From: an uncultured Gemmatimonadales bacterium
GTDB taxonomy: Bacteria; Gemmatimonadota; Gemmatimonadetes; Gemmatimonadales; Gemmatimonadaceae
NCBI GenBank assembly: GCA_963701965.1
Contig: OY969695.1
Location: forward strand, 192,001 to 256,000
DNA: 64,000 bases
Direction of reading: 5' to 3'
Position 1 is the first letter of the stretch; each line of letters starts with the position of its first letter. Below, one piece after another: positions 43,918-62,556 of the stretch. The position numbers were made by a program, and so were the translations under genes. Under the pieces are notes generated by a model. It worked only from the letters and a program-made list of their open reading frames with translations. It ran no database searches and had not been told where the DNA came from.

Positions 43918-44325
43918 ATGACTAGGCATATTCGTTCGTTGTTTTGTGCTGGCTTCCTGCTCTTGCTCGGCGGGCAGATGCTCGCCCAAACGGCGCCGCC
44001 TGCCAAGAGGAACCTTGTGGAGTTGGCGCGTGCCGACCTCTCCGGCGCACCGAACATGGAGGTGATCACTTCTAGAGGCGAGTGGAAAACCGGCGAATCG
44101 ATTCCGAGGCACCTGCATCACGGCATTGAGACTGGCTTCGTACTTCAGGGGGCGATGGTCCAAGAACCCGGTAAGGAGCCAATGATGCTCGCTACTGGCA
44201 GCCCGCTGATGAACCTGCGCGATGTTCCACATGCTGGATTCAAAGTCGTGGGTGAGGCATCACTCATTCTGCTTACTGTTCATATCGTGGACAAAGGCAA
44301 ACCCGTCACTGAATTTCTGAACTGA
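43918..44325 (+). CDS. Secreted cupin, inverted within its cassette
   Basis: Signal peptide; PRHLHHGIE; VPH; IVDKGKP; GGAG RBS. Confidence 0.85.
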   Translation: MTRHIRSLFCAGFLLLLGGQMLAQTAPPAKRNLVELARADLSGAPNMEVITSRGEWKTGESIPRHLHHGIETGFVLQGAMVQEPGKEPMMLATGSPLMNLRDVPHAGFKVVGEASLILLTVHIVDKGKPVTEFLN

Positions 44326-44345
44326 GAAGTCGATCCCCGCACGGC

Positions 44346-44423
44346 GCCTGACGTTTGACATGAGCGGCGGCTGTACGCGAGCGAAGCTTGCCGGAGGACG
44401 TCCGCTCGACGGAGGGGTTCGGC
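44346..44423 (-). repeat. attC
   Basis: GCCTGAC GTTTGACATGAG...GTCCGCTCGACGGAGGG GTTCGGC. Confidence 0.85.
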
Positions 44424-44669
44424 CGATCACTCATTGGGACCGCGAAGTGAGCGAACGCCGGCGCGAAAGCCCTGGTGCTTTGCAAGTGGCGCGCTTGCAG
44501 GAGGTGGCTTTGCGCTGGGTGCGGGTGCCGCGGTGCCGCGAGTCGGCTGTCTCACTCAAGAGTGGCGCATCGAGGGGGTTAGGCGACAGCGACCGAACGG
44601 CAAGACCAACGGGATTGCCGGCGCCGGACACGAAGGATCCGTTAGCGGGAGGTCTCGCGCGCCCCAAGG

Positions 44670-45182
44670 TTAGAAGAGATTCGGATCAGGCGGTTTGCTG
44701 ATTTCCGAGCGATTGGCCTCTATGAACTCGCGGAACGCTCCGGAATAAAGACGTTGCCCTTCCCGGTCGAACACCTCCTTCATCAACGGGTGCCGCAGTT
44801 TCTCAAAGATGTATTGATCCCAGCCTTCGCTTTCGAACTGCTTCGCAACCCAACTAGACCTTCGCGTTGTCTGGTACATCTCTTCAAAGACGCTCAGATG
44901 GAAATACACGAAGGTCTTTAGCTGGTAGTAGTCGTCGCATCTCGGCACTTCTGCCGATGGGGCATAGAAGTACGACGTCTTCCGTTCGACCTGCTCCATG
45001 AGCAAGCGGAGCATCTTCGGGTTAGAAATCGCGAGTTTGTCGATCTCATACATCCGATCCCAAAGTTTCGCCGTTGGCGTGAGCGGCAATAGCGCCCGAG
45101 ATAAGACATAGGTAAGGAGGCCCAGCGCCGCAGCAAGCGCGGCCACCGCAACACCGAGCAAAGTGGCTTGAATCTGGGTCAT
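44670..45182 (-). CDS. Hypothetical N-terminal TM protein (cassette)
   Basis: Intact lower-GC ORF starting just after attC. Confidence 0.7.
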   Translation of the reverse strand: MTQIQATLLGVAVAALAAALGLLTYVLSRALLPLTPTAKLWDRMYEIDKLAISNPKMLRLLMEQVERKTSYFYAPSAEVPRCDDYYQLKTFVYFHLSVFEEMYQTTRRSSWVAKQFESEGWDQYIFEKLRHPLMKEVFDREGQRLYSGAFREFIEANRSEISKPPDPNLF

Positions 45183-45212
45183 GTAACGGTGTGCTGAGAG
45201 GCGTTCTATTCG

Positions 45213-45290
45213 GCCTAACGTTCGGCACGAGCGGCGGCGCAAAGGGCGCGAAGCGGGCTTTGCAACGTCCGCTCGACGGAGGGGTTAGAG
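45213..45290 (-). repeat. attC (both cores intact)
   Basis: GCCTAAC...GTTAGAG, 78 bp. Confidence 0.9.
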
Positions 45291-45725
45291 GCCACGATTG
45301 GGAGCGGTGAGTAGCTTCTTCATAAAGAACTTGGAAAAGCCCACTGGATTGTTCGGAAGCTCCCCGAAACAGATGTAGCCGATACGCTCGTAGAACCCGC
45401 GCGCCTGAAATTCAATTGTGTCGAGCCACACCCCATGGCAGTTTCTCTGCCTGGCCTCCGCCTCGGCAAGCTCCATGATCTGGGCGCCGATGCCGCGACC
45501 CCGAAGATGCGTTGGCACTGCTAGGAGATGCACCATGAGCCAGTCGTAGGACGTGTTCCCCCACAGACCTCCGATCACGGAGCCCGAGCTGTCTCTGAGC
45601 AGCACGGCCAAGTGGCGATACTGGCTAGGCCCGGCCTGACTCGTGTTGTATTGGCCGAGCACGCCACCGATGGCCTGTCGGTTGTCAGCGTCCTCGACGT
45701 CGGTGAGAGAAAGCGTGTAGTCCAT
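45285..45725 (-). CDS. GNAT acetyltransferase
   Basis: LRGRGIG; LDTIEFQARGFYE. Confidence 0.9.
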   Translation of the reverse strand: MDYTLSLTDVEDADNRQAIGGVLGQYNTSQAGPSQYRHLAVLLRDSSGSVIGGLWGNTSYDWLMVHLLAVPTHLRGRGIGAQIMELAEAEARQRNCHGVWLDTIEFQARGFYERIGYICFGELPNNPVGFSKFFMKKLLTAPNRGL

Positions 45726-45752
45726 GCTAAAGCGAGACGGCGTGCGGGTGGG

Positions 45753-45831
45753 ACCTAACGTTCGACATGAGCGGCAGCTGGAGGCAGGCAAACCCTGGCG
45801 GAAGCGGTCCCGCTCGATGGAGGGATTAGCG
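45753..45831 (-). repeat. attC separated from its gene by IS110
   Basis: ACCTAAC...CGCTCGATGGAGGG ATTAGCG. Confidence 0.85.
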
Positions 45832-45832
45832 A

Positions 45833-47499
45833 AGTAATCGGCCTGCTGCCGCAAATCGCGCCGAAGAAACTCTGCGCGGCTTTGTTGTGGCAAGGTGGAA
45901 TGCGGCGCTGCGGAAGACCGATGTGGCAGTGGTGCGTACTGCCCGCGGATTAGCGTGGTCCTGGGTGACGTCATCGACATTGGTGAACCGGCTCGACGGT
46001 TTGCAGCCGCCGGGTCGGTATCCCGTTTGAGAGAATGAGCAAGACGACGTACCCGATGCGGCGCCACATTCCACAACGGATGATGGAGCAAGCCATGGCC
46101 GGACGCAACGCAAGAGTCAGCCCCAAGCCGGATAAGTCCCGAGCAGCCCTGACGATCACCCACCCCAATGCCGCCGGAATCGACATCGACAGCGCGTCCC
46201 ACTTCGTGGCCGTACCGCCGGACCGGGACGACGAACCCGTGCGCGAGTTCCCAAGCTTCACGGTCGATCTCAACGCCCTGGCCGATTGGCTCGACGCCTG
46301 CGGCGTCGATACCGTTGCGATGGAATCGACCGACGTGTACTGGATCCCTCTGTTCGAGCTGCTGGAGTCGCGCGGCTTCACCGTGCTGCTGGTCAACGCT
46401 CGCCACGTCAAGAACGTCTCCGGGCGCAAGTCCGACGTGCTGGACTGCCAGTGGCTGCAGCAGCTCATGACCTACGGCCTGCTCAGTGGGGCGTTTCGTC
46501 CGGCCGAGCAGATCTGCGTCCTGCGCTGCCTGTACCGCCAACGCGAGATGCTGCTAAAGAGCCAGGCCCGTCATGTCCAGCACATGCAAAAGGCGCTCAC
46601 GCAGATGAACACCCAGCTGACCAATGTCCTGGCCGACATCGTCGGCGCCACGGGGCAGAAGATCTTGCGCGCCATCGTCGCCGGCGAGCGCGACGGCGCT
46701 ACGCTGGGCGCGCTCAAGAATGTGCGCGTTCATGCCAGCGCCGACGAGATCGCCAAGAGCTTGCAGGGCAACTGGCGCGCAGAGCACCTGTTTGCACTCA
46801 AGCAGGCGCTGGCACTGTTCGACTTCATCGGCACGCAGCTCAGCGAGTGCGACGGCGAGATCGAAGCCCAACTGCAGAGCCTGCGCACTCACGATGGCGA
46901 TCCCGCCAAAGGCAAGAAGCGCAGCCGCTCGCGTAACGCCCCGAAGTTCGATCTGCGCGTGCAGCTGTTCCAGATGTGCGGTGTCGACCTCACCCGTATC
47001 GACGGCGTCGACGTCACCACGGCGCTGGCGGTGGTCTCGGAGATCGGCGTGGACATGGCACGCTTCCCCACCGTCAAGCACTTCACCTCCTGGCTGGGCC
47101 TGTGCCCGGGTACCAAGATCACCGGCGGCAAGGTGATGAGCGGCAAGACCAAGCGAGTCGTCAATCGCGCTGCGCAGGCCCTGCGCCTGGCCGCCGCCGC
47201 GCTGCGCAGCAGCAAGTCAGCGCTCGGCGCGTATTTCAGAAGGCTCTGCTCGCGCATGGACAAGCCCAAGGCCGTCACCGCCGCCGCACACAAAATCGCT
47301 CGGCTCATCTACTTGATGCTGACCAAAGGCCAGGAGTACACCGATCAAGGCCAGGACTACTACGAGCAACGCTACCGCGAGCGCGTCCTGCGCGCCCTAT
47401 CTCAGCGCGCCGCCAAGCTCGGTATGAAGATGGTCGCCATCGAGCAACCCGCCTGAAATCCACCCTCCAAATCAATCACTTGGAACGAGTTTCTTGAGA
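45833..47499 (+). mobile_element. IS110 family element (long type), GA core inferred
   Basis: GA at both junctions (45831-32, 47500-01); ~260-bp structured non-coding left end. Confidence 0.8.
46095..47456 (+). CDS. IS110 family transposase/recombinase
   Basis: AAGIDID, VAMEST, RKSDVLDC, SWLGLCP. Confidence 0.92.
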   Translation: MAGRNARVSPKPDKSRAALTITHPNAAGIDIDSASHFVAVPPDRDDEPVREFPSFTVDLNALADWLDACGVDTVAMESTDVYWIPLFELLESRGFTVLLVNARHVKNVSGRKSDVLDCQWLQQLMTYGLLSGAFRPAEQICVLRCLYRQREMLLKSQARHVQHMQKALTQMNTQLTNVLADIVGATGQKILRAIVAGERDGATLGALKNVRVHASADEIAKSLQGNWRAEHLFALKQALALFDFIGTQLSECDGEIEAQLQSLRTHDGDPAKGKKRSRSRNAPKFDLRVQLFQMCGVDLTRIDGVDVTTALAVVSEIGVDMARFPTVKHFTSWLGLCPGTKITGGKVMSGKTKRVVNRAAQALRLAAAALRSSKSALGAYFRRLCSRMDKPKAVTAAAHKIARLIYLMLTKGQEYTDQGQDYYEQRYRERVLRALSQRAAKLGMKMVAIEQPA

Positions 47500-47501
47500 G
47501 A

Positions 47502-47925
47502 CGCCAGCATGCCAGAGCCTGATACGAGCCTGCCGCAAAGCGAACCAGCCCGTAGAGACTGCAAGCGTGACGCCTGCGGCGGCCTCGAACCAGATGGTGA
47601 AGTTCATCGCAAGCGTGTGCTCAGAGCAGAGAGCCAGCGTGTAGTGCGCAAGCCCGTCGAGTCCAAACGCTCCATAAGCGGCGAAGAAGAGTGCGGCCGT
47701 TGTGCGCCAACCTGCCGCAACAAGAACGGCGCCGATGATGCCGACGCCGGTGATCATCAGCCAGGCGAGATAGACCTTTTCCCTTGTGAGCCAGGTTGGC
47801 ATGTTCGGATAGAAAGCGATGTATTCCGCGTTGTGGCTGAAGTGAGCGAGGCTCGCGACGCCATACAGCGCGAGCACCGGCCACACGTGGCTTGGCAAAT
47901 GCAACGAGCCGGGAAGCTCCTTCAC
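47502..47925 (-). CDS. Hypothetical membrane protein (3' end cut by IS110)
   Basis: HFSHNAE, YPNMP; four TM segments. Confidence 0.7.
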
Positions 47926-47932
47926 TGCTGAG

Positions 47933-48010
47933 GCCTAACGTTCGACATGAGCAGCGGCGCAAAGGGCGCGAAGCGGCCTTTGGGACGTTCGCTCGATGGA
48001 GGGGCTAGAG
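47933..48010 (-). repeat. attC
   Basis: GCCTAAC...CTCGATGGAGGG GCTAGAG. Confidence 0.9.
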
Positions 48011-48011
48011 C

Positions 48012-48608
48012 TCACTGGGCAGGCGACGGCTGATCCCTTTGCACGAGCGACAGATATTGCTCGAGAGTTCCGCACGAAAGCGGCTTGAACATGACGCGCA
48101 AGGTATTTGTGAGCTTCCCCATTTCGACGCCATGGCGCGTTCTGACTTCAATGTACCCGAGCGCTTCCCAAAACCGCTCGGCTCGACTGTTGCCCTGTAC
48201 GACGCCGAGCCGAAGCCACTTGGCACCGTTGGAGGCGGCCCACGCTTCGAGTTCGCCATACAGCGCCTGGGCAAGCCCCGTCCCGTGATGCGAAGTGGCT
48301 ATCACAAATAAACCAATGTGCCAGACGCTCGGGGCAAGAAGATCGGAGACGATGTTCGCCATCGCAACCATTCCTCCATCGGCGTTCAAGTAGCCCACCA
48401 ACCACTTTCTCGTGAAGCTCCACCCTACCGGCAATTCGCCATGGATTTCTTGGTGCGCCTCGTTCGGTCCCGCGGGCACACCGTTAACCGCAAGAAAGTA
48501 TTGCGGATTGGCTACGAAGAAGGCCTGCAGCAGCTGCTCATCTTCACCCGTGATCTCTATCGCACGCAAGCCCGGAACGAAGGAGACCGGGAGTGCGGCG
48601 ACCGTCAT
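48012..48608 (-). CDS. GNAT acetyltransferase
   Basis: HHGTGLA; LRLGVVQGNSRAERFW. Confidence 0.88.
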   Translation of the reverse strand: MTVAALPVSFVPGLRAIEITGEDEQLLQAFFVANPQYFLAVNGVPAGPNEAHQEIHGELPVGWSFTRKWLVGYLNADGGMVAMANIVSDLLAPSVWHIGLFVIATSHHGTGLAQALYGELEAWAASNGAKWLRLGVVQGNSRAERFWEALGYIEVRTRHGVEMGKLTNTLRVMFKPLSCGTLEQYLSLVQRDQPSPAQ

Positions 48609-48614
48609 CGTGGG

Positions 48615-48683
48615 CTCTAGCGTTCGACATGAGCGGCGGCCGCAGTCAAGTGCAGCTTGCCGAAGGACGTCCGCTCGATGGAG
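48615..48683 (-). repeat. attC split by IS110 (remainder at 49851-49859)
   Basis: CTCTAGC GTTCGACATGAG...CTCGATGGAG, then IS, then GAGTTAGGT. Confidence 0.9.
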
Positions 48684-48698
48684 CAACTGTGTCTCAAG

Positions 48699-49669
<971 letters not shown>

Positions 49670-49670
<1 letters not shown>

Positions 49671-49830
49671 CTACCCTTCCTTGCGAATGCATGTTCATCA
49701 TCGACAACTGTTCGGGCTACACGGTTGGATAAGAACGGGCCAATGCGTTGACCTAATGCTCCATCACGAGCTAGAACTCAGAGGGGTAACTGGTTTGGCG
49801 CATCGACCACGAAACTACGGCACTGCTGTG
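49670..49830 (-). ncRNA. Predicted bridge RNA (ends approximate)
   Basis: Four guide segments matching target and donor junctions in IS621 order. Confidence 0.8.
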
Positions 49831-49900
49831 CCTACTTCGGAAGATACAAGGAGTTAGGTCGCACCTCGGCTGCCGCGATACGCTCTTGCCCGTGTGGCTA

Positions 49901-50197
49901 CTACACGCCCTCAAGGGTAATGAGCATGTCCATTTCACTAGTGCATTGCTTCCGAAGAGCAATCAGCGGCGCATATTCGGGCGCGGTGTACCAGGCGTTA
50001 AGCGCTGTCATATCCGGGAACTCGATGATCACGACGCGCTCTGGGGTCCAGTGGCCTCCTTCGGGCATCCTATGGGCTCCTCCCTTGTTGAGATAGCGGC
50101 CTCCGTACTTGGCGATGAGTGGGCCAACCTTGACGCGGTAGTCCTCGAACTTGGACGCATCCGTGATGATGTGCTCAACGATCAAGTAAGCGGACAT
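49901..50197 (-). CDS. DUF1330 protein
   Basis: YGGRYL; IIEFPD; WY..PEY..LIALR. Confidence 0.88.
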   Translation of the reverse strand: MSAYLIVEHIITDASKFEDYRVKVGPLIAKYGGRYLNKGGAHRMPEGGHWTPERVVIIEFPDMTALNAWYTAPEYAPLIALRKQCTSEMDMLITLEGV

Positions 50198-50239
50198 GGG
50201 TTGCCTCCGAATGCGAGCAGTCTCAGTGTTTGCGGCGCG

Positions 50240-50307
50240 ACCTAACGTTTGAGATGAGAGGCGTGACCCGGCTCGCGGGGCAAGTCCTCTCGATTAAAGG
50301 GTTAGGC
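50240..50307 (-). repeat. attC of dfrB cassette (68 bp, cores intact)
   Basis: ACCTAAC GTTTGAGATGAG...CTCGATTAAAGG GTTAGGC; dfrB stop lies in the core box. Confidence 0.9.
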
Positions 50308-50538
50308 CACGCGTTCAAGTGCAGCGACAGGATAAATTTGTACTGAGCCTGGGTGAGATTCAGACTCGACGGCGTAGCCCTCAGGGGTCAGTTTTGTGCA
50401 ATACCAGCCGACAACTTGACCCTGCCAAGCGGCGCCAGACTTCTTGCGTACACGATCTCCCAGGCCAAACGTGGCGCGCAGTCGCAATGCAAACGGACCA
50501 GCAACTGGAGTACTGATGTCGTTGCTACTTTGATCCAT
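50302..50538 (-). CDS. dfrB: Type II (R67-like) dihydrofolate reductase, trimethoprim-resistant
   Basis: 78 aa; [34 protein letters not shown]. Confidence 0.97.
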
Positions 50539-50646
50539 ACCTAACCCTTTTCGTCAATGTTTTGAGATGCTCGGCTGATCCAGGTCTACTTTTTGATTGG
50601 GCGATGACCTTGAAATCCTTCGCCCATGACGAGCCTGCTGGAGGAC

Positions 50647-51899
50647 GGGATCTTGCTCCGCTTTAGTTGACACATTGTTGTTAGGTCGTGCGTCGTTCGA
50701 AGGTAGCTGGCGGCGTGTGATCGAGAGACGAGTGCAGCCGCGTGTGGTTGTAGTACCGCAGGTAGGTGTGCAGAGTCTGCCTGAGCTCCTGGTCGCTGTC
50801 GAACCGCTTGCCCCAGAGGAACTCGCTCTTGAGTGAGTGGAAGAACGATTCCATGTGGGCGTTGTCGTTCATCTGACCGGGACGGTTCATGCTCTGCACG
50901 ATGCCGTGGCGGCGCAACGCCGCCTGGTAATCGAAGGCGCCGTACTCGATGCCGCGGTCGGTGTGGAAGATCAGGCCCGGCTCGGGTCGCCGCTTACGCA
51001 CAGCGTGCTGCAACGCTGTTCGGGTTAACTCGGCATCGCGTCTCTTGCTCAGGCTCCAGCCCACAAGCCTGCGTGAGTACTTGTCCATGACGACGGCCAT
51101 GTAGCGCCATTGCTGCCTGACGCGCAGGTAAGTGACGTCACCCACCCAGACTTGGTTGGTGTCTTGAAGCTGCAGGTGGCGCTGCCGGTTGGGGATGCGC
51201 TTGTAGAAGGCCTTCTGGCCCACCCTTCGGCGGCGATAGAGCCGCGCGCTGCGGCCCTGGATGTGTGCGCCGCGCATGAGCCTGGCGACCCGCCGGCGGC
51301 CGATTGATAAGCCCGCCTGCCGCATGGCTTGAGTCACCCGCGGACTGCCGTAGGTGTTCAAGCTGCTCGCGTGGACGCTGCGGATCTGCTCGGTGATGGC
51401 AGCGTCATCGACCTGGTGTTGGCTGGCTCCGCGTGCCTGCCAGGCGTAGAAGCCGGCCCGCGTTACGCCCAGCTGCCTGCACATCATCGCGAGGGGCCAC
51501 GCTTGCCGGTTTGTCCCGATGAAGGCGAAGACTTCGCCTTTCGTTCTGAGACAAACCGGATAGCTTTTTTTAGCAGGTCGTGCTCCATCTGCAGCTGCCG
51601 GTACTTGCCCTCGACTTCGCGCAGCCGCTGTAGCTCCGCTACAGCGGCTGCATCGAGCACCGGTGACTTGCCACTGAGCACGCCGTCTCTGACCTGCTTC
51701 CTCCACTTGGAGAGCATGAAGGGGTGGATGCACAGCGACTCGGCCACATCCTTGACGAGTACGCCGGGCTGCTCGCTCATGCGAACCGCGCGTAGCTTGA
51801 ACTCAAGCCCGTAGCGGTTGATCTTCTTCGGGCCAGGCATGCCCATTTGAGAACTCCTTCCGTTAGGTCAGAGTGTCAATCAAACCGGTGCAAGCTCCA
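50647..51899 (-). mobile_element. IS3 family element inserted in an attC
   Basis: 27-bp imperfect IRs; orfA from 51846, A7G slippery site 51564-51571; orfB WVGDVTY, HTDRG, DNAHMESFF. Confidence 0.93.
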
Positions 51900-51918
51900 C
51901 GTCCGCTCGATGGAGCGG

Positions 51919-52413
51919 TTAGGCCACATGTTGCGCTTGCTCGAGGACACTACCTGGTAACCAGCAAGCCATCCGAGTGGCGATCGCGCCTTTGCGCCGA
52001 AATGGCTTCGAGATGGGAAAGAAACCCAACGCTTGGTATGCGGCAATAGCGTACGGCGACGAGTTGAGTTCGACGGTTTTGACTTCCGGATAACTCTCTT
52101 CAAGGTGGGCGCGTGCGGCATTCCACAACGCCCGCCCGATGCCCTTGCGCAACTGACTGGGAGCGACAAAGAACAGTTGCACAAGCGTCAAGCGAGGCAA
52201 GAGGATGACTCCGACTACCTGAGCGTCGTGCTCGCACACCAAGCAAAGGGCTGCCTCGGAAAGCTTTAATGCGAGCTTGTCGGCCTGGGTTTCGGCGATG
52301 AACTCGTGCTGAGCCGACAACTCCCAATCTGGGGCAATGTGCGCGGCGAAGCCGGCTTGAACCAGCTGCGAAATGGCCACCGCATCATCAGCGTTCGGTT
52401 GGCGCAGATGCAT
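51919..52413 (-). CDS. GNAT acetyltransferase
   Basis: FFVAPSQLRKGIG; LNSSPYA..AY..LGF. Confidence 0.88.
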   Translation of the reverse strand: MHLRQPNADDAVAISQLVQAGFAAHIAPDWELSAQHEFIAETQADKLALKLSEAALCLVCEHDAQVVGVILLPRLTLVQLFFVAPSQLRKGIGRALWNAARAHLEESYPEVKTVELNSSPYAIAAYQALGFFPISKPFRRKGAIATRMACWLPGSVLEQAQHVA

Positions 52414-52421
52414 GCTCGTGG

Positions 52422-52499
52422 GTCTAACGTTTGAGATGAGCGGCGGCCGCAGGCAAGCGCAGCTTGCCGGAGGACGTCCACTCGATGGAAGGGCTAGGC
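52422..52499 (-). repeat. attC of first cassette
   Basis: GTCTAAC GTTTGAGATGAG...CTCGATGGAAGG GCTAGGC. Confidence 0.9.
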
Positions 52500-52525
52500 C
52501 TCAGTGGACAACACATGGCATTCGT

Positions 52526-53068
52526 CTACGCACTCGCCTTGGGCCACCCGACGTTTGCAGCACGACGAAGACTGGCTTTCACAACCTGGCGATGAAAGGG
52601 AGCAATGACCGATAGGTAGGCTCGGCCCAAGCGGTTGTGGCAGTAAACGACGGTTGATAGGGTCAGTTGGCTACCGGTAGTTGGCGGCGAGCCTGGCGTA
52701 CAAAGAATTGACACTCTGAAGTCAAGATGCTTGTCGTTCTCGCCTAAGACGACCTCAGTTTCGCTGGTGCTGAAGACCCTGAAGATGCTGATGCGGGGGG
52801 CTGTGGCATCACTAGAGAGCGTTGCAAGGTGCTTGGCGGTCTTCAGACCAAATCCCGCAACGATTGCATCTCGGACTTGGATGAGCGCTCCGATCCAAGA
52901 TGGCTGCTCCGCGAAGATGAATCGGGCCAAGACATCTGGATTTATAGAGGCGTCAGAAGGAAGTCGAATCGAAAACGCGTCTGCGAGGTTCACCGACTTG
53001 AATGCAGTAGCGACGGCAGACTGCGAGGGCAGGGCAACCTGCTCTACTAGCGTGAGTTTGCCTGGCAT
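52526..53068 (-). CDS. DUF2867 protein (first cassette)
   Basis: GENDKHLDFRVS; HNRLGRAY...PFH. Confidence 0.85.
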   Translation of the reverse strand: MPGKLTLVEQVALPSQSAVATAFKSVNLADAFSIRLPSDASINPDVLARFIFAEQPSWIGALIQVRDAIVAGFGLKTAKHLATLSSDATAPRISIFRVFSTSETEVVLGENDKHLDFRVSILCTPGSPPTTGSQLTLSTVVYCHNRLGRAYLSVIAPFHRQVVKASLRRAANVGWPKASA

Positions 53069-53084
53069 GGATGGACCTTCTGAG

Positions 53085-53170
53085 GCCTAACGAACAGCGT
53101 TTGTCTGACGCCGAGCCGATGTCTGTCGAAGGGCGTGACGGGACATGGCGTCAGATAAACCCCGTTGGAC
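53085..53170 (-). other. Putative attI
   Basis: Minus strand ACAAACGCTGTTC GTTAGGC just before first cassette; not of attC family; 14-bp inverted repeat 53099-53112 / 53147-53160. Confidence 0.7.
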
Positions 53171-53201
53171 TGAACCGCCGATATGGCGGTGCGCTATGGG
53201 C

Positions 53202-53231
53202 AGTGTAAGTTTCGGCGCTGAGCTAAGGCAA
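53202..53231 (-). promoter_or_regulatory. Candidate Pc cassette promoter
   Basis: TTGCCT-18 nt-TACACT pointing into attI. Confidence 0.4.
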
Positions 53232-53239
53232 CGCCGTCG

Positions 53240-53972
53240 TGCTGCGGACGAACCCGATAGCGGTGATGGTTGCTCGAAGTTGTCTTCGAATGGCGCTCGG
53301 AGTCGAGTTTGCCGCCACGGCCCGTGGCTCGATGCCTGGTAGTAGCGAAGCAGACGCGATACGTTCCCGGCCTGCGTCGACGAGGCCTTGCAGGAGACAG
53401 CCGCGCGCCCGAGCCCATCAGGGCGGCCTCCGACATGCGGTCGACGCGGCGATCGAGGTCAGCGCCGGCCGATCAGCCGCCACGTGCTGCAGCACTCGCC
53501 AGCGTCCGATACTGCAATCAGGGGCCATCCCGGTCGGTGATGGCGAGGTAGGTCTCGTCGAGCTCGACCATCCCCCAGACGATCGCGATCGGGCCGCACC
53601 ATCGCCCGGCGAAACCGGTACAGCATCGCCCAGGCGGTCTGGTAACTGCCCAGCCCGAGCACCCGCTGCAGCCCCAAGGCGCTCAGGCCCTGCTTCTGGT
53701 TGGTCAGGTACAAGGCCGCAGCCGGCCAGACCCGCGGCGGGGTGCGGGTCTTGTCGAAGATCGTTCCCGCCGTCACGGTGCTCTGGTGGCGCGCAGTCCT
53801 TGCACATCATGCGGATGCGGCTGGCACGGTAGGACACGCTCGCCACGCCGCAGCTCGGGCAGATGAAGCCGTTCGGCCAGCGCAATCCCTCCAGGTAGGC
53901 AAGGCACGCGTCCTCGGTCGAGAACTGATCGAGGAACTCGGTCCAGGTGCGTGGATAAGGTTGACTGGACAT
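53240..53972 (-). mobile_element. IS1595 family transposase remnant (left limit approximate)
   Basis: YPRTWTEF..FSTEDACLAYLEGLRWPNGFICPSC; TAGTIFDKTR; VELDETY. Confidence 0.8.
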
Positions 53973-53982
53973 GAGCGATAAG

Positions 53983-53998
53983 CTGTATATTTATCCAG
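53983..53998. promoter_or_regulatory. LexA (SOS) box
   Basis: CTGTATATTTATCCAG = CTG-N10-CAG with AT-rich spacer in a GC-rich context; TTGACT -35 at 53961. Confidence 0.85.
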
Positions 53999-54000
53999 TA

Positions 54001-55930
54001 GTGCGCCGGGAGGCCGGCAAGGAGTAGAGGGGTGAGAGTCCCCGACGACCAAGACGTAGCGAGTCATGTTGTCCCCGAGTCATGCGCAGCGCATCGCGAG
54101 GTGTGCGGCGAAGCGTTGACAGGGGTGCGTGTAGGCCAGCCATTGAGCCACGAAATGTTTATTCAGACCCGGGTGCCGACGCCGTTACTGTGGCGGAAGG
54201 CAACACGCGCGGGCGCGCCATCGCAAGTGCCCGTGCGACCCGGCGGGGTCAGAGACCCTGGCATGCACGTACGCTCCTTGCACGGGAACCGGGAGATCTG
54301 CGAACCGACCAAGCGCTGGAGCGATCCGGTGGAGGTCCGCGTCGGGAAGGCGAGGAGCCGAAGCCGATGATGAACGGGACGCAGAAGTCAGACTCGCCCA
54401 TAGTAGCGATGAAGCCGGCGAACAAACCCGAACGCCTGATGGCAGGGGCGGGTGCGGAGTCGGTGGAGCCAAGGGGCGGGGCCAAGGGGAACGCGGACCA
54501 GTCACGCACGTGCCGGACGCAGGGCCGGGAAAGCGTGTTCCAGAGGCTGGATCGCGTGCGCCAAGCCGCAAGGCAGAGGAAGAAGGAGAAGTTCACCGCG
54601 CTGATGCACCTTGTCGATGTCGAACTGCTCAGAGAGTCGTACTTCTGGCTACAGCGGAAGGCGGCCGCCGGGGTGGATGGCGTCACATGGCAACAGTACG
54701 GCGAAGGCCTCGAAGAACGGCTCGAGCAACTGCACGGGCGCATCCACCGCAACGCCTACCTGGCGACGCCGTCCCGGCGCCAGTACATCCCCAAAGCAGA
54801 CGGTCGCATGCGGCCGCTGGGGATCGCGGCGCTCGAAGACAAGATCGTCCAGCGGGCGCTGGTGGAAGTGCTCAACGCGGTCTATGAGCAAGACTTCTTG
54901 GGCTTCTCGTACGGGTTCAGGCCGCAACGCAGCCAGCATCAAGCGCTGGACGCGTTGGCGGTTGGCATCACGCGTACCAATGTGAGCTGGATCGTGGACG
55001 CCGACATCAAGAGCTTCTTCGACGCGGTCAGCCACGCGTGGTTGATCAAGTTCCTGGAGCACCGAATCGGCGACCCACGCATCATTCGCCTCATAGGCAA
55101 ATGGCTGAAGGCCGGCACGCTGGAAGAAGGCAAGCTGGTGGCAAGCGAGGAGGGCACGCCGCAAGGCGCGGTCATCTCGCCGCTGCTGGCCAACATCTAC
55201 CTGCACTACGTCTTCGATCTCTGGGCACATCAATGGCGCCAGCGCCATGCTCGGGGCAACGTGGTGATCGTGCGCTACGCCGACGATATCGTGGTCGGCG
55301 TGGACAAGGAGTCGGATGCCACGCGCTTCGTGCAGGCGATGCGATCGAGACTGGAGCAGTTCAAGCTAACGCTGCATCCCGAAAAGACCCAGGTGATCCG
55401 GTTCGGCCGCTTCGCGGCGGCCAACCGGGCCAAGCGAGGTCTGGGCAAACCGCAGACGTTCGACTTCCTCGGGTTCACGCACATCAGCGGGCACGACCGA
55501 CGCGGCAAGTTCTTGCTGCAGCGGATCACCCGGCGCGACCGGATGGTTGCTACGCTGAAGCGGATCAAGGAAGAGTTGCGGCGGCGTTGGCACATCTCGG
55601 TCCACGAGCAAGGGAAGTGGCTGCGCAAGGTGGTGCAGGGTTACTTCGGCTACCACGCCGTGCCCGGCAACTACCCGCGCATGAAGGCGTTCCGAAACCA
55701 CGTCACCGACCTCTGGCGAAAGGCGCTGCGGCGCCGGGGCCAGCGGGATCGGACGACGTGGAAGAAGGCGTTCCGGTTGGCCGCGGAGTGGTTGCCCCGA
55801 GCTCGTGTCCTTCACCCCTGGCCGAACCAGCGCTTCGACGCCACCCACCCAAGGCAGGAGCCCGGTGCGCGAATCGTGCACGCCGGGATCTGTGCGGGGG
55901 GCGCCCGGTAACGGGTGGCCCTATCGCGAT
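54001..55930 (+). mobile_element. Group II intron (IIB-like), full length
   Basis: 5' GTGCG; domain V GAGCCCGGTGCGCGAATCGTGCACGCCGGGATC at 55858; 3' AT. Confidence 0.92.
54367..55911 (+). CDS. ltrA: Group II intron reverse transcriptase/maturase, no HNH domain
   Basis: RPLGI, SYGFRP, GTPQG..ISPLLANIYL, RYADD, FDFLGF. Confidence 0.95.
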   Translation: MMNGTQKSDSPIVAMKPANKPERLMAGAGAESVEPRGGAKGNADQSRTCRTQGRESVFQRLDRVRQAARQRKKEKFTALMHLVDVELLRESYFWLQRKAAAGVDGVTWQQYGEGLEERLEQLHGRIHRNAYLATPSRRQYIPKADGRMRPLGIAALEDKIVQRALVEVLNAVYEQDFLGFSYGFRPQRSQHQALDALAVGITRTNVSWIVDADIKSFFDAVSHAWLIKFLEHRIGDPRIIRLIGKWLKAGTLEEGKLVASEEGTPQGAVISPLLANIYLHYVFDLWAHQWRQRHARGNVVIVRYADDIVVGVDKESDATRFVQAMRSRLEQFKLTLHPEKTQVIRFGRFAAANRAKRGLGKPQTFDFLGFTHISGHDRRGKFLLQRITRRDRMVATLKRIKEELRRRWHISVHEQGKWLRKVVQGYFGYHAVPGNYPRMKAFRNHVTDLWRKALRRRGQRDRTTWKKAFRLAAEWLPRARVLHPWPNQRFDATHPRQEPGARIVHAGICAGGAR

Positions 55931-55947
55931 TCAATTCGGGAGTGCAA

Positions 55948-56229
55948 GTGGACAACGCCAGCGGCCGCGTCGAGGCTGAATGTGGACGATCGGCGCCGTT
56001 TCGGTTGCTCGATGCCTTGCGCGAGCGCCTGCGGTACATGCACTACAGCTTACGGACCGAGGAAGCCTATGTCCATTGGGTGCGCGGCTTCGTACGGTGG
56101 TCGGGTCGACGCCATCCGCGCGACATGGGTGCGGCGGAGGTGCGCGATTTCCTGACCATGCTGGCGAGCGAGCGGCGCGTCGCCGCGGCCGCGCACCGGC
56201 AAGCCCTCAGCGCGCTGCTGTTCCTCTAG
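55948..56229 (+). pseudogene. intI: Integron integrase, N-terminal domain only
   Basis: [51 protein letters not shown] then stop. Confidence 0.92.
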
Positions 56230-59200
56230 TGCTACCGCGCTACGCCGAGCTTCACTGTCGCAGCAACTTCAGCTTCCTGACGGGCGCGTCGCATCCCGAG
56301 GAGCTGGTCGAGCGCGCCGCCGCGCTCGGCTACGGCGCGATCGCGATCACCGACGAGTGCTCGCTCGCCGGCGTCGTGCGCGCGCACGTCGAGGCGCAGG
56401 CGCAAAAGCTGCCGCTCGTCATCGGCAGCGAGATCCGCCTCACCGATGCCGAGACCGGCGCGCCGCATGCGCGTCTGGTGCTGCTGGCGCAGTCGCGGCG
56501 CGGCTATGGCAACCTCGCCCACTGGATCACAGTCGCGCGTCGTCGAGTCGAGAAGGGCCACTACCGCGCCCATCCGGGCGACGTCGAAGGCAAGGTGCCC
56601 AATGCGCCGATGCTCGCCGGCCTCGGCGGCTGCTTCGCCTTGCTCGTGCCCGCGGCTTCGCAGGATCCTGCCGAGATCCTGGCCCACGCGACTTGGCTCA
56701 AGAGCTGGTTCCAGGAGCGTGCGGCGATCGCCATCGAGCTGCTCCATCGCGCCGCCGACGACGATCTCGTCGACCACGTCACCGAGGTCGCGGCGCGCAC
56801 CGGCCTGCCGATCGTCGCCGCCGGCGACGTGCTGATGCACGTGCGCTCGCGAAAGCCCCTGCAGGACACGCTGACGGCGACGCGCCTCGCCAAGTCGGTG
56901 GCCGAGTGCGGCCTCGCGCTCGAGCCCAACGCCGAGCAGCACCTGCGCTCGAAGAGCCGCCTGGCCGCGCTCTACGAGCCGGCGTGGCTCGAGCAGACGA
57001 TGGCGATCGTCGCGGACTGCAAGTTCTCGCTCAGCGAGCTGAAGTACGAGTACCCGCAGGAGATCGTGCCGCCGGGCGAGACGCCGGCGTCGCAGCTGCG
57101 AAAGCTCACCTACGCGGGCGCGCTGAAGCGCTTCCCGCAGGGCCTGCCCGACGAGCACCGCGCGACGATCGAGCACGAACTCGGAGTCATCGCCGAGCTG
57201 CAGTACGAGTCGTACTTCCTCACCGTCGCCGACATCGTCGACTGGGCGCGCGAGAAGAATATCCTGTGCCAGGGCCGCGGCAGCGCCGCCAACTCGCTGG
57301 TTTGCTACTGCCTGCACGTCACCGAGGTCGACCCGCGCCGCGCCAGCCTGCTGTTCGGCCGCTTCATCAGCGTCGAGCGCAAGGAGCCGCCCGACATCGA
57401 CATCGACTTCGAGCACCAGCGGCGCGAGGAGGTGATCCAGTACATCTACGGCAAGTACGGCCGGCACCGCGCCGCGCTCGCCGCGGTGGTAATCAGCTAC
57501 CGGCCGCGCTCGGCGCTGCGCGACGTCGGCCGCGCCCTCGGCATCGACCTGCAGCGGATCGAGGCGGTGTCGAAGAGCCAGCACTGGTTCGACGGCCGCG
57601 GCATCGCGCCCGAGCGGCTGCGCGAGAACGGCTTCGATCCGGAATCTCCGGTGGTCCAGCTCTGGATGGAGCTCACCGGCCAGCTGATCGGCTTCCCGCG
57701 CCACCTCTCGCAGCATCCGGGCGGCTTCGTCATCGGCAAGAACCAGATCGAGGAGCTGGTGCCGATCGAGAACGCGGCGATGGAAGACCGGAGCGTCATC
57801 CAGTGGGACAAGGACGACCTCGAATCGCTTGGGTTGCTGAAGGTCGACATCCTCGCCATCGGCATGCTGAGCGCGATCCGCCGCTCGCTCGAGTACATCG
57901 GCACCAAGCTCGGCCGCACGCCGCTCATGATGCAGGAGATCGGCGAGGGCGACGTGCCGACCTACGACATGATCTGCAAGGCCGACACCGTCGGCGTGTT
58001 CCAGATCGAGAGCCGGGCGCAGATGAGCATGCTGCCGCGCCTGAAGCCGCGCTGCTACTACGACCTAGTGGTCGAGGTGGCGATCGTCCGGCCGGGGCCG
58101 ATCCAGGGCGGCATGGTTCATCCGTACCTGAAGAACCGCACGCTCGCCGACCGCGAGATCGACTGTCCCGAGGAGCTCAAGCCGGCGCTGCTGCGAACCA
58201 AGGGCGTGCCGATCTTCCAGGAGCAGGTGATGCAGATCGCCATGCTCGCCGCCGACTTCACCGCCGGCGAGGCCGATGCGCTGCGCCGCGCGATGGCGGC
58301 GTGGAAGCGGCGCGGCGGCCTGTCGCCGTTCCACAAGCGGCTGGTGGGCCGGATGGTCGAGAAGGGCTACACGCGCGAATACGCCGAGCGCATCTTCAAG
58401 CAGATCCAGGGCTTCGGCGAATACGGCTTTCCGGAAAGCCACGCCGCCGGCTTCGCGCTGCTCGCCTACGTCAGCAGCTGGATCAAGTGCCACCATCCCG
58501 ACGCCTTCCTCTGCGGCCTGCTCAACGCCCAGCCGATGGGCTTCTACGCGCCGGCGCAGCTGGTGCGCGATGCGCGCGAGCACGGCGTCGAGGTGCTGCC
58601 GGTCGACGTCGCGGTGAGCGACTGGGAAAGCACGATGGCGGGCGAGGGCAGCGCGAGCGCCGGGGCCGGCCCGCTCGGCCAGGGTGGCGCCGCAGCAGCC
58701 GGTCCGGCTCGGCCTCAACCGCGTCAAGGGGCTCGCCGAAGAGGCCGGCCGGCGCGTCGTCGCTGCGCGCGCCGAGGCGGCCTTCGTCAGCGTCGAAGAC
58801 CTGGCGCGGCGCGCCCTCCTCGACGCCCATGCCCTGGCGGTGCTCGCCGAATCGGGGGCACTGCAGGCGCTCACCGGCCATCGCTACCAGGCGGCGTGGG
58901 CGGTGGCGGGAATCGACACCCGGCCGACCGAGATGCTGCGCGCGACGCGTAGCCACGAAACCGGCGTGGCGCTGGCCGCGCCGAGCGAGGGCGAGGAAAC
59001 GCTCGCCGACTACCGCGCCCTCGGACTGACGCTGCAACGCCATCCGCTCGCCCTGCTGCGGCCGCAGCTCGCCGCCTTCCGCATCGAGCCGGCGGCGCGC
59101 TTGCGCACTTTTCCGAACGGCCGGCTGGCGCGTGCGAGCGGCCTGGTGACGCACCGGCAGCGGCCCGAGACGGCCAAGGGAACGGTCTTCGTCACGCTCG

Positions 59201-60677: not shown

Positions 60678-62556
60678 GTGCGCCCGGCACGGGCGCACTC
60701 TTGCGGGTGCAAGTCCCGCCGTAAGTTGATCACAGCGAACGAAGTGAAACGCAACTGCATGAGGGTGACCGAGTGTGGGGAGGAAGCGTGGATCGAAGCT
60801 GCGAGCCGATGAACAAGAACCGGATAGAAGGCGCTGCCAAGCAGGGCGAGCGGGCCATGAACCGCGAAGCTCTCGTGATCAAGGCGAGGTGGCGTAGATC
60901 CGGCGGTTGTGCAGCGAAGGAGTGCGTTCTTACCCGGGGAGATCTCGCCTTGCGCCTGAAAGGGCGACGGCCTATGCCGGAGCGAGAAGTCAGCAGAGGT
61001 CGTAGTAGTGCCGGTAGCCTGCCGCTGAGGCGAGAGTGAAAGCGCGAAGGGCCGAACGAGAGTAAGTGACCGAAGACATGGGGATGTCAGAAGGCCATGC
61101 GTCAGATGCCGGAGCAATCCGGGCGGGTGGGCGTAGCGCGCGGTGAAGCCGGGCGTGAAGCTGCCAGTGACGAAGCCTGCGGCCCGCCCAATGAGCACCC
61201 GGGCACGGGTCGGCAAGGCCGAAGGCGGGGGCTGGCACCCTGCTGGAGGCGGCGCTGACGAGAGAACCTGCAGGTGGCGTGGAAGCGGGTCAAGGCCAAC
61301 AAGGGCGCAGCAGGGGTGGACGGGCTCGACATCGAGCAGACGGCTCAAACGCTGGCGCACGAGGTGGCCGCAGATACGCGAAGCGTTGCTGGCGGGCAAG
61401 TACCGGCCTGAGCCGGTGCGAAGGGTGATGCTCCAAGCCGGACGGGAGCGAGCGCGAGCTGGGCATCCCCACGGTGCTGGATCGGCTGATCCAGCAGGCA
61501 CTGCTGCAAGTGCTGCAACCCTGATCGACCCCACCTTCAGCGAACACAGCCAGGGGTTTCGTCCGGGGCGGCGGGCGCACGACGCGGTCACGGCTGCGCG
61601 GGCGTACGTGCAAACGGGCAAGCGCGTGGTGGTGGACGTGGACCTGGCGAAGTTCTTCGACCGGGTCAACCACGACATCCTGATAGACCGGCTGCGCAAG
61701 CGCATCGACGATGCTGGAGTGATCCGGCTGGTGCGGGCGTACCTGAGCGCCGGGATCATGGATGGCGGGGTGGTGGTCGAGCGCCACATGGGCACGCCGC
61801 AAGGCGGGCCGCTGTCACCGTTGCTGGCCAACGTGTTGCTGGACGAAGTGGATAAGGTCTTGGAGGCGCGGGGCTACAGCTTCGCCCGCTATGCCGATGA
61901 CTGCAACGTCTATGTGGGCAGCATGAAGGCTGGGCAGCGGGTGATGGCGCTGCTGGGAGGGCTGTACGCCGGGCTCAAGCTTCAGATCAACGCAGTCAAG
62001 AGCGCGGTGGGCAGTGCATTGGGGCGCAAGTTCCTGGGCTACGCGCTGTGGGGGGCCGAGGGCCGGGAGGTCAAATGCGCCGTGGCCGCCAAGCCACTGC
62101 GGGACTTCAAGGCCCGTATCCGGCAGCTCACACGCCGCTCGGGCGGGCGCAGCATGGAGCAAGTGGTGCAGGGATTGCGGCCGTACCTGCTGGGCTGGAA
62201 GGCGTACTTCGGGCTGGCGCAAACACCCGAAGGTCTGGCGCGGGCTGGACGAGTGGCTGCGTCACCGATTGCGAGCGATCCAGCTCAGACACTGGAAGCG
62301 GCCGGCGACGATGTACCGCGAGCTCAAGGCACTTGGCGCGGGGGAAACGGTTGCGCAGGCGAGTGGCGGTCAACAGTCGCCGCTGGTGGCGTAACAGTGA
62401 TGGCCTGCTCAAGACCGTGCTGACCATTGCCTACTTCGACAGACTGGGCGTACCCAGGCTCTCATGACCTCAAGCTCTCGAACCGCCCGGTGCGGACCCG
62501 CATGCCGGGTGGTGTGGCAGGGGTGCCTCCTCTAATGGAGCGCCCCCTATGCCGAT
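60678..62556 (+). mobile_element. Group IIC intron
   Basis: GTGCG 4 nt after terminator T-tract; short domain V with CGC triad at ~62480; 3' AT. Confidence 0.92.
61085..62467 (+). CDS. Group IIC RT/maturase (several frameshifts; start approximate)
   Basis: [35 protein letters not shown]. Confidence 0.9.

Follow-up and report, generated by a model that had tools for sequence, protein, structure and literature searches.

Background

Kl.pn.I5, the closest described relative of the intron reported here, is listed as a class E1 group II intron (PMC3522654, supplement) and is the same element as Se.ma.I1/S.ma.I1 (PMC6764390). A consensus homing site has been given for it, neither LexA nor SOS being named in the accessible parts of that article and its supplements (PMC3522654). 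Traits described for class E are a five-base terminal loop in domain V (DV), an alpha-prime placed in a terminal stem-loop and an additional bulge in DId3; in vitro splicing in this class needs only the exon-binding site EBS1, EBS2 having been proposed to serve homing (PMC3753933). An enrichment of class E introns near repair genes has been reported, and classes B, CL1, E and ML have been said to "hijack" replication and repair neighbourhoods; this account, as far as accessible, names no target sequence and has 0 occurrences of LexA (PMC7306698). Homing to an operator would explain part of that enrichment.

Two other kinds of intron invite comparison. Class C (IIC) introns such as S.ma.I2 and B.h.I1 likewise keep, as a lineage, to one class of functional DNA elements rather than to a single gene and likewise occur at integrons, but they read a stem-loop and have no EBS2 (PMC4424553, PMC3753933). 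The lineage described below, by contrast, has EBS1, EBS2 and EBS3 that all covary with linear sequence, and what it targets here is the operator of an integrase gene rather than attC. The EcKTE56.groEL and Azotobacter introns at the groEL terminus resemble our case in occupying a harmless spot which a regulated host promoter can transcribe, but they are IIB1 introns with a single gene target, the groEL stop codon, and not an operator class (PMC12584367).

In the mainly open literature searched we found no report of LexA-box targeting by an intron or by an IS1595 element. The accessible parts of PMC3522654, PMC7306698, PMC12584367, PMC6764390, PMC11783820, PMC4147364 and bioRxiv 10.1101/2021.03.02.433680 do not mention LexA. 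Those of PMC8876359 discuss only IIC-attC introns at integrons, those of PMC3108266 do not contain the word "intron", and PMC13393415 describes ISCR transposases under SOS control. Here we describe homing of a class E group II intron to LexA operators, which is real and was not found in the literature searched. What the locus contributes is a second branch whose splice site is shifted, a candidate pairing with the whole operator, and a co-located insertion sequence (IS) family with the same target.

An intact intron behind a LexA box

The following features were recognised in the window, the whole stretch of 64,000 nt that was analysed (contig OY969695.1, positions 192,001 to 256,000). Exon positions are counted from the intron, -1 being the last base of the 5' exon and +1 the first of the 3' exon.

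53520-53972, minus strand: 5' part of an IS1595-family (ISRama1/ISCsp2-like) transposase gene, frameshifted and truncated (PF12760; 74-79% DNA identity to ISRama1/ISCsp2-type elements)
53983-53998, no strand assigned: LexA (SOS) box CTGTATATTTATCCAG, probably a hybrid of an IS-internal box and the intI box
53987-53994, plus strand: IBS2 region (-14 to -7), pairing at 6/8 positions with 54155-54162
53995-54000, plus strand: IBS1 CCAGTA, 5/6 pairs with EBS1
54001-55930, plus strand: group II intron, 1,930 nt, GUGCG...GAU, intact, single copy in the assembly
54155-54162, plus strand: EBS2 loop AUGUUUAU, from the covariation diagonal
54164-54166, plus strand: CAG, candidate extension of EBS2, complementary to the far CTG of the box (-18 to -16), putative pairing
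54186-54191, plus strand: EBS1 UACUGU in the loop of the hairpin CGCC-GTTACTGT-GGCG (54180-54195), from covariation and fold
54251, plus strand: EBS3 (A), pairing with T55931
54370-55911, plus strand: RT/maturase ORF, 513 aa, intact, YADD (RVT_1; TIGR04416, 361.6 bits against a cut-off of 300)
55858-55930, plus strand: domains V and VI, from sequence and fold; AGC triad opening DV, five-base terminal loop
55931-56229, plus strand: 3' exon, consisting of a leader and an N-terminal integron integrase fragment (PF13495, NF011946; likely start GTG at 55948), cut off and followed by dnaE2

The preliminary description placed the intron start 2 nt behind the LexA box, and this is what we find: the box is followed by TA and then by GTGCG at 54001. 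The hallmarks of a group II intron are all present, namely the GUGYG 5' end, the AY 3' end, domains I-IV (Rfam RF02005, 186 bits), the catalytic triad of DV and the YADD RT/maturase. Regarding the class, DV carries the five-base loop, with an upper-stem register that differs between the MFE and centroid structures; no endonuclease (En) domain was found in the ORF, for which Pfam gives RVT_1 only and which terminates within DV/DVI; exon recognition is IIB-like (EBS1/EBS2/EBS3); and the RT groups with a class E member, being 69% identical to that of Kl.pn.I5 and falling in the same tree group, in a tree where Kl.pn.I5 is the sole named class reference. To judge from its sequence, the intron is thus an intact, endonuclease-less class E-type group II retroelement. 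Membership in class C or among the IIC-attC introns was considered and rejected: EBS2 covaries, no terminator was found at 53700-54300, and the nearest attC-like match begins at 53085.

The intron is present once in the assembly, which holds no intron-free allele, and shows 0 differences from a copy (L027) that occupies another box. Contigs of 4 DNA and 4 RNA public runs contain near-identical intron pieces beginning at 54002; among the matches listed for these contigs there was no exon-exon joint, and no public run containing half of the stretch was found. ORF-less derivatives may exist, to judge from an internal deletion in the L114 intron (L114:439-460) and from weak contig joints that leave out some 1.4 kb. 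The window contains another group II intron, unrelated to this one, at 60759-62423 (RF02001/RF01998, GIIM domain); it is frameshifted and class C-like by appearance only.

Recognition of the proximal exon

Complementarity to the site runs from EBS1, facing the end of the box plus TA (-6 to -1), through the EBS2 loop, facing the AT-rich spacer (-14 to -7), to EBS3, facing +1. EBS1 lies where it had been placed. In 38 lineages inserted at non-LexA sites, the bases at this hairpin offset form 85% Watson-Crick pairs with exon positions -6 to -1, as against a mean of 29% and a maximum of 43% in shuffles and 17-29% at neighbouring offsets. In the predicted fold the unpaired probability is 0.84-1.0 for 54186-90 and 0.4 for 54191.

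EBS2 had been proposed as UGUUUA (54156-54161). Its location stands, but at the window site these six bases make only 4/6 pairs (-8 to -13). The loop, which follows GAGCC..CGAAA, covaries with -8 to -12 at 49-70% per position against about 25%. In the branch to which the intron belongs, the best diagonal has U54156 facing -8, a shift of one base from the register seen most often. Fixed offsets around the hairpin gave no EBS3, which was located by alignment: the column of A54251 is complementary to +1 in 83% of 58 rows, the next column in 48%. Position -1 is a purine in 47/51 non-LexA lineages but T or C in the LexA groups that insert 1 nt behind the box.

Insertion sites of related introns

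The CTG-N10-CAGTA pattern occurs once in the window against 0.54 expected and is not rare, so the weight of the LexA link rests on the homologues. Related introns were collected as 314 loci, among which three branches have sites at LexA boxes. The branch of the window intron is betaproteobacterial, has EBS1 UACUGU or UACUGG and RTs 82-100% identical, and inserts 2 nt behind the box (the 2-nt branch). Of its 16 distinct sites, 12 have a full CTG-N10-CAG box whose end is 2 nt from the intron, 3 of them (L197-L199) being contig-end flanks assigned via the Pelomonas intron L028. Its betaproteobacterial sister group (Burkholderia/Ralstonia), 1 nt behind the box, has full LexA boxes at 6/6 sites, L379 repeating one of them, and the enterobacterial Kl.pn.I5 group, also 1 nt behind the box, at 42/48. 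In our assembly (G000) just 21 of 1648 MCAGTA sites are full boxes. Homing to SOS operators, as first conjectured from the single site, is supported in all three branches.

The proposal had been made to depend on whether introns with the same EBS1 also occur away from LexA boxes. A minority do: L110 and L106 sit at non-LexA sites (5/6 pairs with EBS1), and L273 at a degenerate one inside a gene; in L114, the remaining miss of the 2-nt branch, the box is split by an IS end. Most sites are LexA boxes. Three of the six misses in the Kl.pn.I5 group (L139, L141, L131) are half boxes, in the order IS-like terminus, spacer, ACAG. The counts leave out loci with no readable 5' end or less than 20 nt of exon, three tandem-copy junctions, rows starting AAGCG or CGGCG (boundary unsure) and the Kl.pn.I5-type L309; L106, outside the hairpin pattern, was added by hand as a miss. 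Pattern searches of a viral collection gave 1 match and 0, and an RT scan there gave mostly Kl.pn.I5-type copies.

Among side observations, tandem head-to-tail Kl.pn.I5 copies share one site at L228, L239 and three more loci, and altered 5' ends (GTTCG, GTTCA, GCTCA) occur in both branches (L135, L140, L044, L251, L291, L294), possibly marking immobilised residents.

Relationship to Kl.pn.I5

The catalogued Kl.pn.I5/S.ma.I1 had been missed in the preliminary description. Its copy on pK245 lies 1 nt behind the umuD box. The two introns share 69% RT identity (pK245 copy), the domain I layout, LexA-box sites and a tree group: in a quick maximum-likelihood tree of 65 rows, in which all but 4 enterobacterial RTs were left out, the 19 rows with a LexA-type EBS1 all fall in one 22-row group (SH-aLRT 92), together with L279, L106 and L111. 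They differ in that Kl.pn.I5 inserts 1 nt behind the box, with EBS1 ACUGUU, EBS3 U and the loop UGUAUAUUAAA lacking a distal CAG, whereas the 2-nt branch has EBS1 UACUGU, EBS3 A and the distal CAG. The window intron is not Kl.pn.I5 itself, since at about 72% DNA and 69% protein identity it lies beyond the limit of about 10% DNA divergence. One Ralstonia box is occupied at orthologous positions by both kinds of intron, one base apart (L185 of the 2-nt branch and L276 of the 1-nt branch).

Within the LexA group, L111 and L279 have changed EBS1 and EBS2 together with a new, non-LexA target. Homing to LexA boxes accounts for the presence of a relative next to umuD on many enterobacterial plasmids; at least 80% of the query is covered in 4,170 plasmid records, most of them from Klebsiella.

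Possible recognition of the distal half-site

At the window site the 6/8 pairs of 54155-54162 are followed by one mismatch and then by CAG (54164-54166), Watson-Crick complementary to -16 to -18. This CAG occurs in 28 of the 29 rows of the 2-nt branch with a readable loop, the exception being L110, which has CAA and a non-LexA site. It is present in 1/9 rows of the 1-nt betaproteobacterial group and in 0/139 enterobacterial rows (rows include near-copies), Kl.pn.I5 having AAA instead, and in 1/37 non-LexA lineages, namely the retargeted sibling L111, which pairs 11/11 with its own unrelated site. Distal runs of three pairs are seen in 6/37 non-LexA lineages against 2.0 in shuffles (p 0.01, uncorrected for the registers tried), and distal pairs number 36/111 against 27 (p 0.03, or 0.12 in the well-paired subset, both uncorrected). 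The distal excess in non-LexA lineages is weak.

Whether CAG pairs with the far CTG, so that the RNA would read both half-sites, is on these sequences an evenly balanced question. A precedent for an additional RNA-DNA contact beyond EBS2 is the EBS2a-IBS2a interaction of IIB1/IIB2 introns, needed for mobility and not for splicing; it differs in being one pair at -14, formed by a base upstream of EBS2, while the candidate here comprises three pairs at -16 to -18 that continue the EBS2 strand (PMC8643678). If true, the three-base extension would offer gene targeting with introns a new contact that can be programmed.

Kl.pn.I5 and most of the 1-nt betaproteobacterial introns lack CAG and yet the far CTG is kept at their sites, so RNA pairing is not the whole account there. 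The near half might be read by base pairing and the far half by a protein, be it the RT in contact with the distal exon, or LexA/RecA, which would mark or open the operator. That Kl.pn.I5 with AAA for CAG still inserts at full boxes speaks for this, as do RT contacts to distal exon bases described for other introns (PMC3522654, PMC8643678) and the presence at the same operators of unrelated DDE transposons (the IS1595 group and an ISL3-type end at L139), which hints at a shared host feature. We nevertheless regard protein reading of the far half as unlikely, though worth keeping in mind: no base at -24 to -13 is conserved across the family in 51 non-LexA lineages, the siblings L111 and L279 with similar RTs moved to unrelated targets along with their EBS sequences, and the site of L273 is not an operator. 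That last site is well paired although it lies inside a gene, which fits a reading of sequence.

Occupied and available sites

Insertion might also occur at many ACAGT(A) sites, only the copies beside SOS operators being tolerated, or expressed enough to be seen. The off-box insertions L110, L106 and L273 agree with such a survivor bias, and EBS1+EBS2 matches in GC-rich replicons are probably mostly coding. The background of available sites makes this improbable. In a Klebsiella genome the far CTG is present at 13 of 141 AT-rich half-sites and missing from the other 128, yet 20/24 intron sites of like pattern have it (Fisher p 1.5e-13). On the Ralstonia megaplasmids W01 and W05, EBS1+EBS2 matches with no more than one mismatch number 83 and 94, and 7 and 10 of these have the CTG as well; the canonical boxes among the latter, 2 and 3 in number, are all occupied by very recent identical copies. 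A fourth W05 copy lies at the degenerate site, the four showing 0 differences among them. Copies pointing away from the gene are, moreover, common, so expression from an SOS promoter is unnecessary for persistence. The p values are overstated because sites and lineages are related. In GC-rich Pelomonas 6/14 AT-rich half-sites are already full boxes, and the background argument is therefore weakened there.

The host DNA and origin of the box

The first 320 kb or so of the contig (G000:C1, 1 to about 320000, including the window) has a word usage unlike the rest. The lolC/E protein of the window is 69% identical to that of Pelomonas, against 33% to the second copy in the assembly and 34% to same-genus genomes, and dnaE2 likewise points to a Burkholderiales-like origin of this block. 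Its host is probably a Burkholderiales bacterium, and the contig is probably chimeric and misjoined to an unrelated genome. Among 150 "relatives" of the assembly only distant introns were found, because the bulk of the assembly belongs to another lineage. The foreign block with its many broken genes, and a junction bridged by no public run, might suggest that the arrangement is a coincidence of AT-rich preference and a chimeric joint, but this is scarcely credible and is refuted for the lineage, since complete plasmids and the genomes of isolates show this geometry again and L114 repeats the succession of IS end, half box, intron, short leader and dnaE2.

Of the 727 CTG-N10-CAG sites in the 5.1-Mb assembly, none comes closer to the LexA consensus than the box of the window (4/20 mismatches, the next best having 7). 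The two lexA genes found in the assembly both lie outside the foreign block. Beta- and gammaproteobacterial LexA boxes are CTGT-N8-ACAG near the start of an SOS gene (PMC3108266). The box departs from this palindrome at one base (CCAG) and precedes the likely intI start by about 19 nt, and LexA binding is predicted. On the other side, the ATG of the IS1595 remnant, which makes up the left flank of the intron, is 10 nt away, and the IS relatives L320 and L321 carry the same box within their left end. At the closest intI relative, L342, the box and an identical start sequence are about 20 nt apart, and a box is present there in 25/30 intI relatives. The 3' exon was also considered as an IS terminal repeat; this was rejected, L342 showing it to be the intI leader. 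In L114 the order is IS-internal box, IS terminal repeat, 8-base spacer plus ACAG, intron, short leader and dnaE2. In the window an IS would have landed in the intI box, and the short stretch between the IS-internal box and the target half would later have been lost.

dnaE2 closely follows the intron in both the window (55931-56240) and L114 (1472-1560). The integrase fragment of the window ends at the start of a start-less dnaE2, and the stub in L114 resembles an integrase start. Minus-strand cassette-like small genes with attC-like repeats and IS110/IS3 insertions at 44000-53400 form the array of the window integron.

Neighbouring genes and transcription

Genes next to the introns across sites include imuA, PA0069-family and TIGR03916 radical SAM proteins, umuD, dnaE2, intI, SRAP, dinI-like, gyrI-like and cloacin genes. 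In the 2-nt branch, a family search of 17 distinct 3' flanks identified a downstream SOS or repair gene in sense orientation for 9 of them: intI (window), imuA (L109, L191, L107), the PA0069 family (L027, L115), TIGR03916 (L195), a UmuD-like gene (L116) and dnaE2 (L114); 6 of the 17 have no 5' flank, so that the box is not visible. SRAP at L198, in the same branch, points away, and in the sister groups imuA (pBCJ2315) and umuD (pK245) often do so. In the Kl.pn.I5 group a divergent gene starts within 50 nt in 25/81 5' flanks and a sense start follows in 25/53 3' flanks; a count of orientation based on ribosome-binding sites gave 0/14 and 1/9 at the betaproteobacterial sites. With orientations so mixed, SOS-driven expression is possible for many copies and is no rule. 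For sense copies, SOS-driven transcription is a possibility to judge from their position. No sigma-70 promoter was found upstream of the window copy (53700-54300), nor, by eye and by scan, a -35 supplied by the intron for the opposite strand.

Insertions at umuDC, imuABC, dinI-like, colicin and integrase operators could alter mutagenesis, prophage induction and cassette shuffling. A retroelement of R471a at the mucAB promoter was reportedly described in 1998, and that report may have noted its closeness to the operator.

Proposed mechanism

Introns of the 2-nt branch lie at the right edge of LexA operators, which they probably find by base pairing between domain I RNA and operator DNA. We propose that the spliced RNA-RT particle would reverse-splice into exposed single-stranded operator DNA, and that cDNA synthesis would be primed at the replication fork, as for other En-minus introns (PMC4424553), the distal triplet perhaps adding specificity. 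LexA targeting may have had a single origin in an ancestor shared with Kl.pn.I5; the tree is compatible with this and does not prove it. In the 2-nt branch the splice site would then have moved away from the box by one more base, the register of EBS2 on the box staying as it was. The pay-off is likely to be a multi-copy, intergenic class of target borne by plasmids and prophages, and copies facing the regulated gene would be transcribed in the SOS response and spliced from the 5' leader. After terminators and attC sites, a transcription-factor operator would be the third class-wide target of group II introns.

More speculatively, the RNA may pair with nearly the entire LexA operator, land before SOS genes and be expressed and mobilised upon damage, the IS1595 elements having converged on the SOS box as a general landing pad; we lean somewhat against this extended form.

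Other mobile elements at LexA boxes

Elements of the ISRama1/ISCsp2 type in the IS1595 family (window 53520-53998; L320-L340, L114) show 8 bases plus xCAG directly after 27/30 readable ends, three truncated ends being left out of this count. The exact 8-base spacer is duplicated in 7 of 11 two-ended copies. These termini indicate that the neighbouring IS1595 group inserts into LexA boxes. The convergence of IS1595 and ISL3 elements raises the question why LexA boxes make good targets. Several IS1595 copies (L320, L321, L114 and the left ends of L325-L336) contain their own LexA-like box immediately before the start of the transposase gene, which suggests that transposition of these elements may be SOS-controlled. 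At the Kl.pn.I5 half-box site L139 the upstream gene is an ISL3 transposase.
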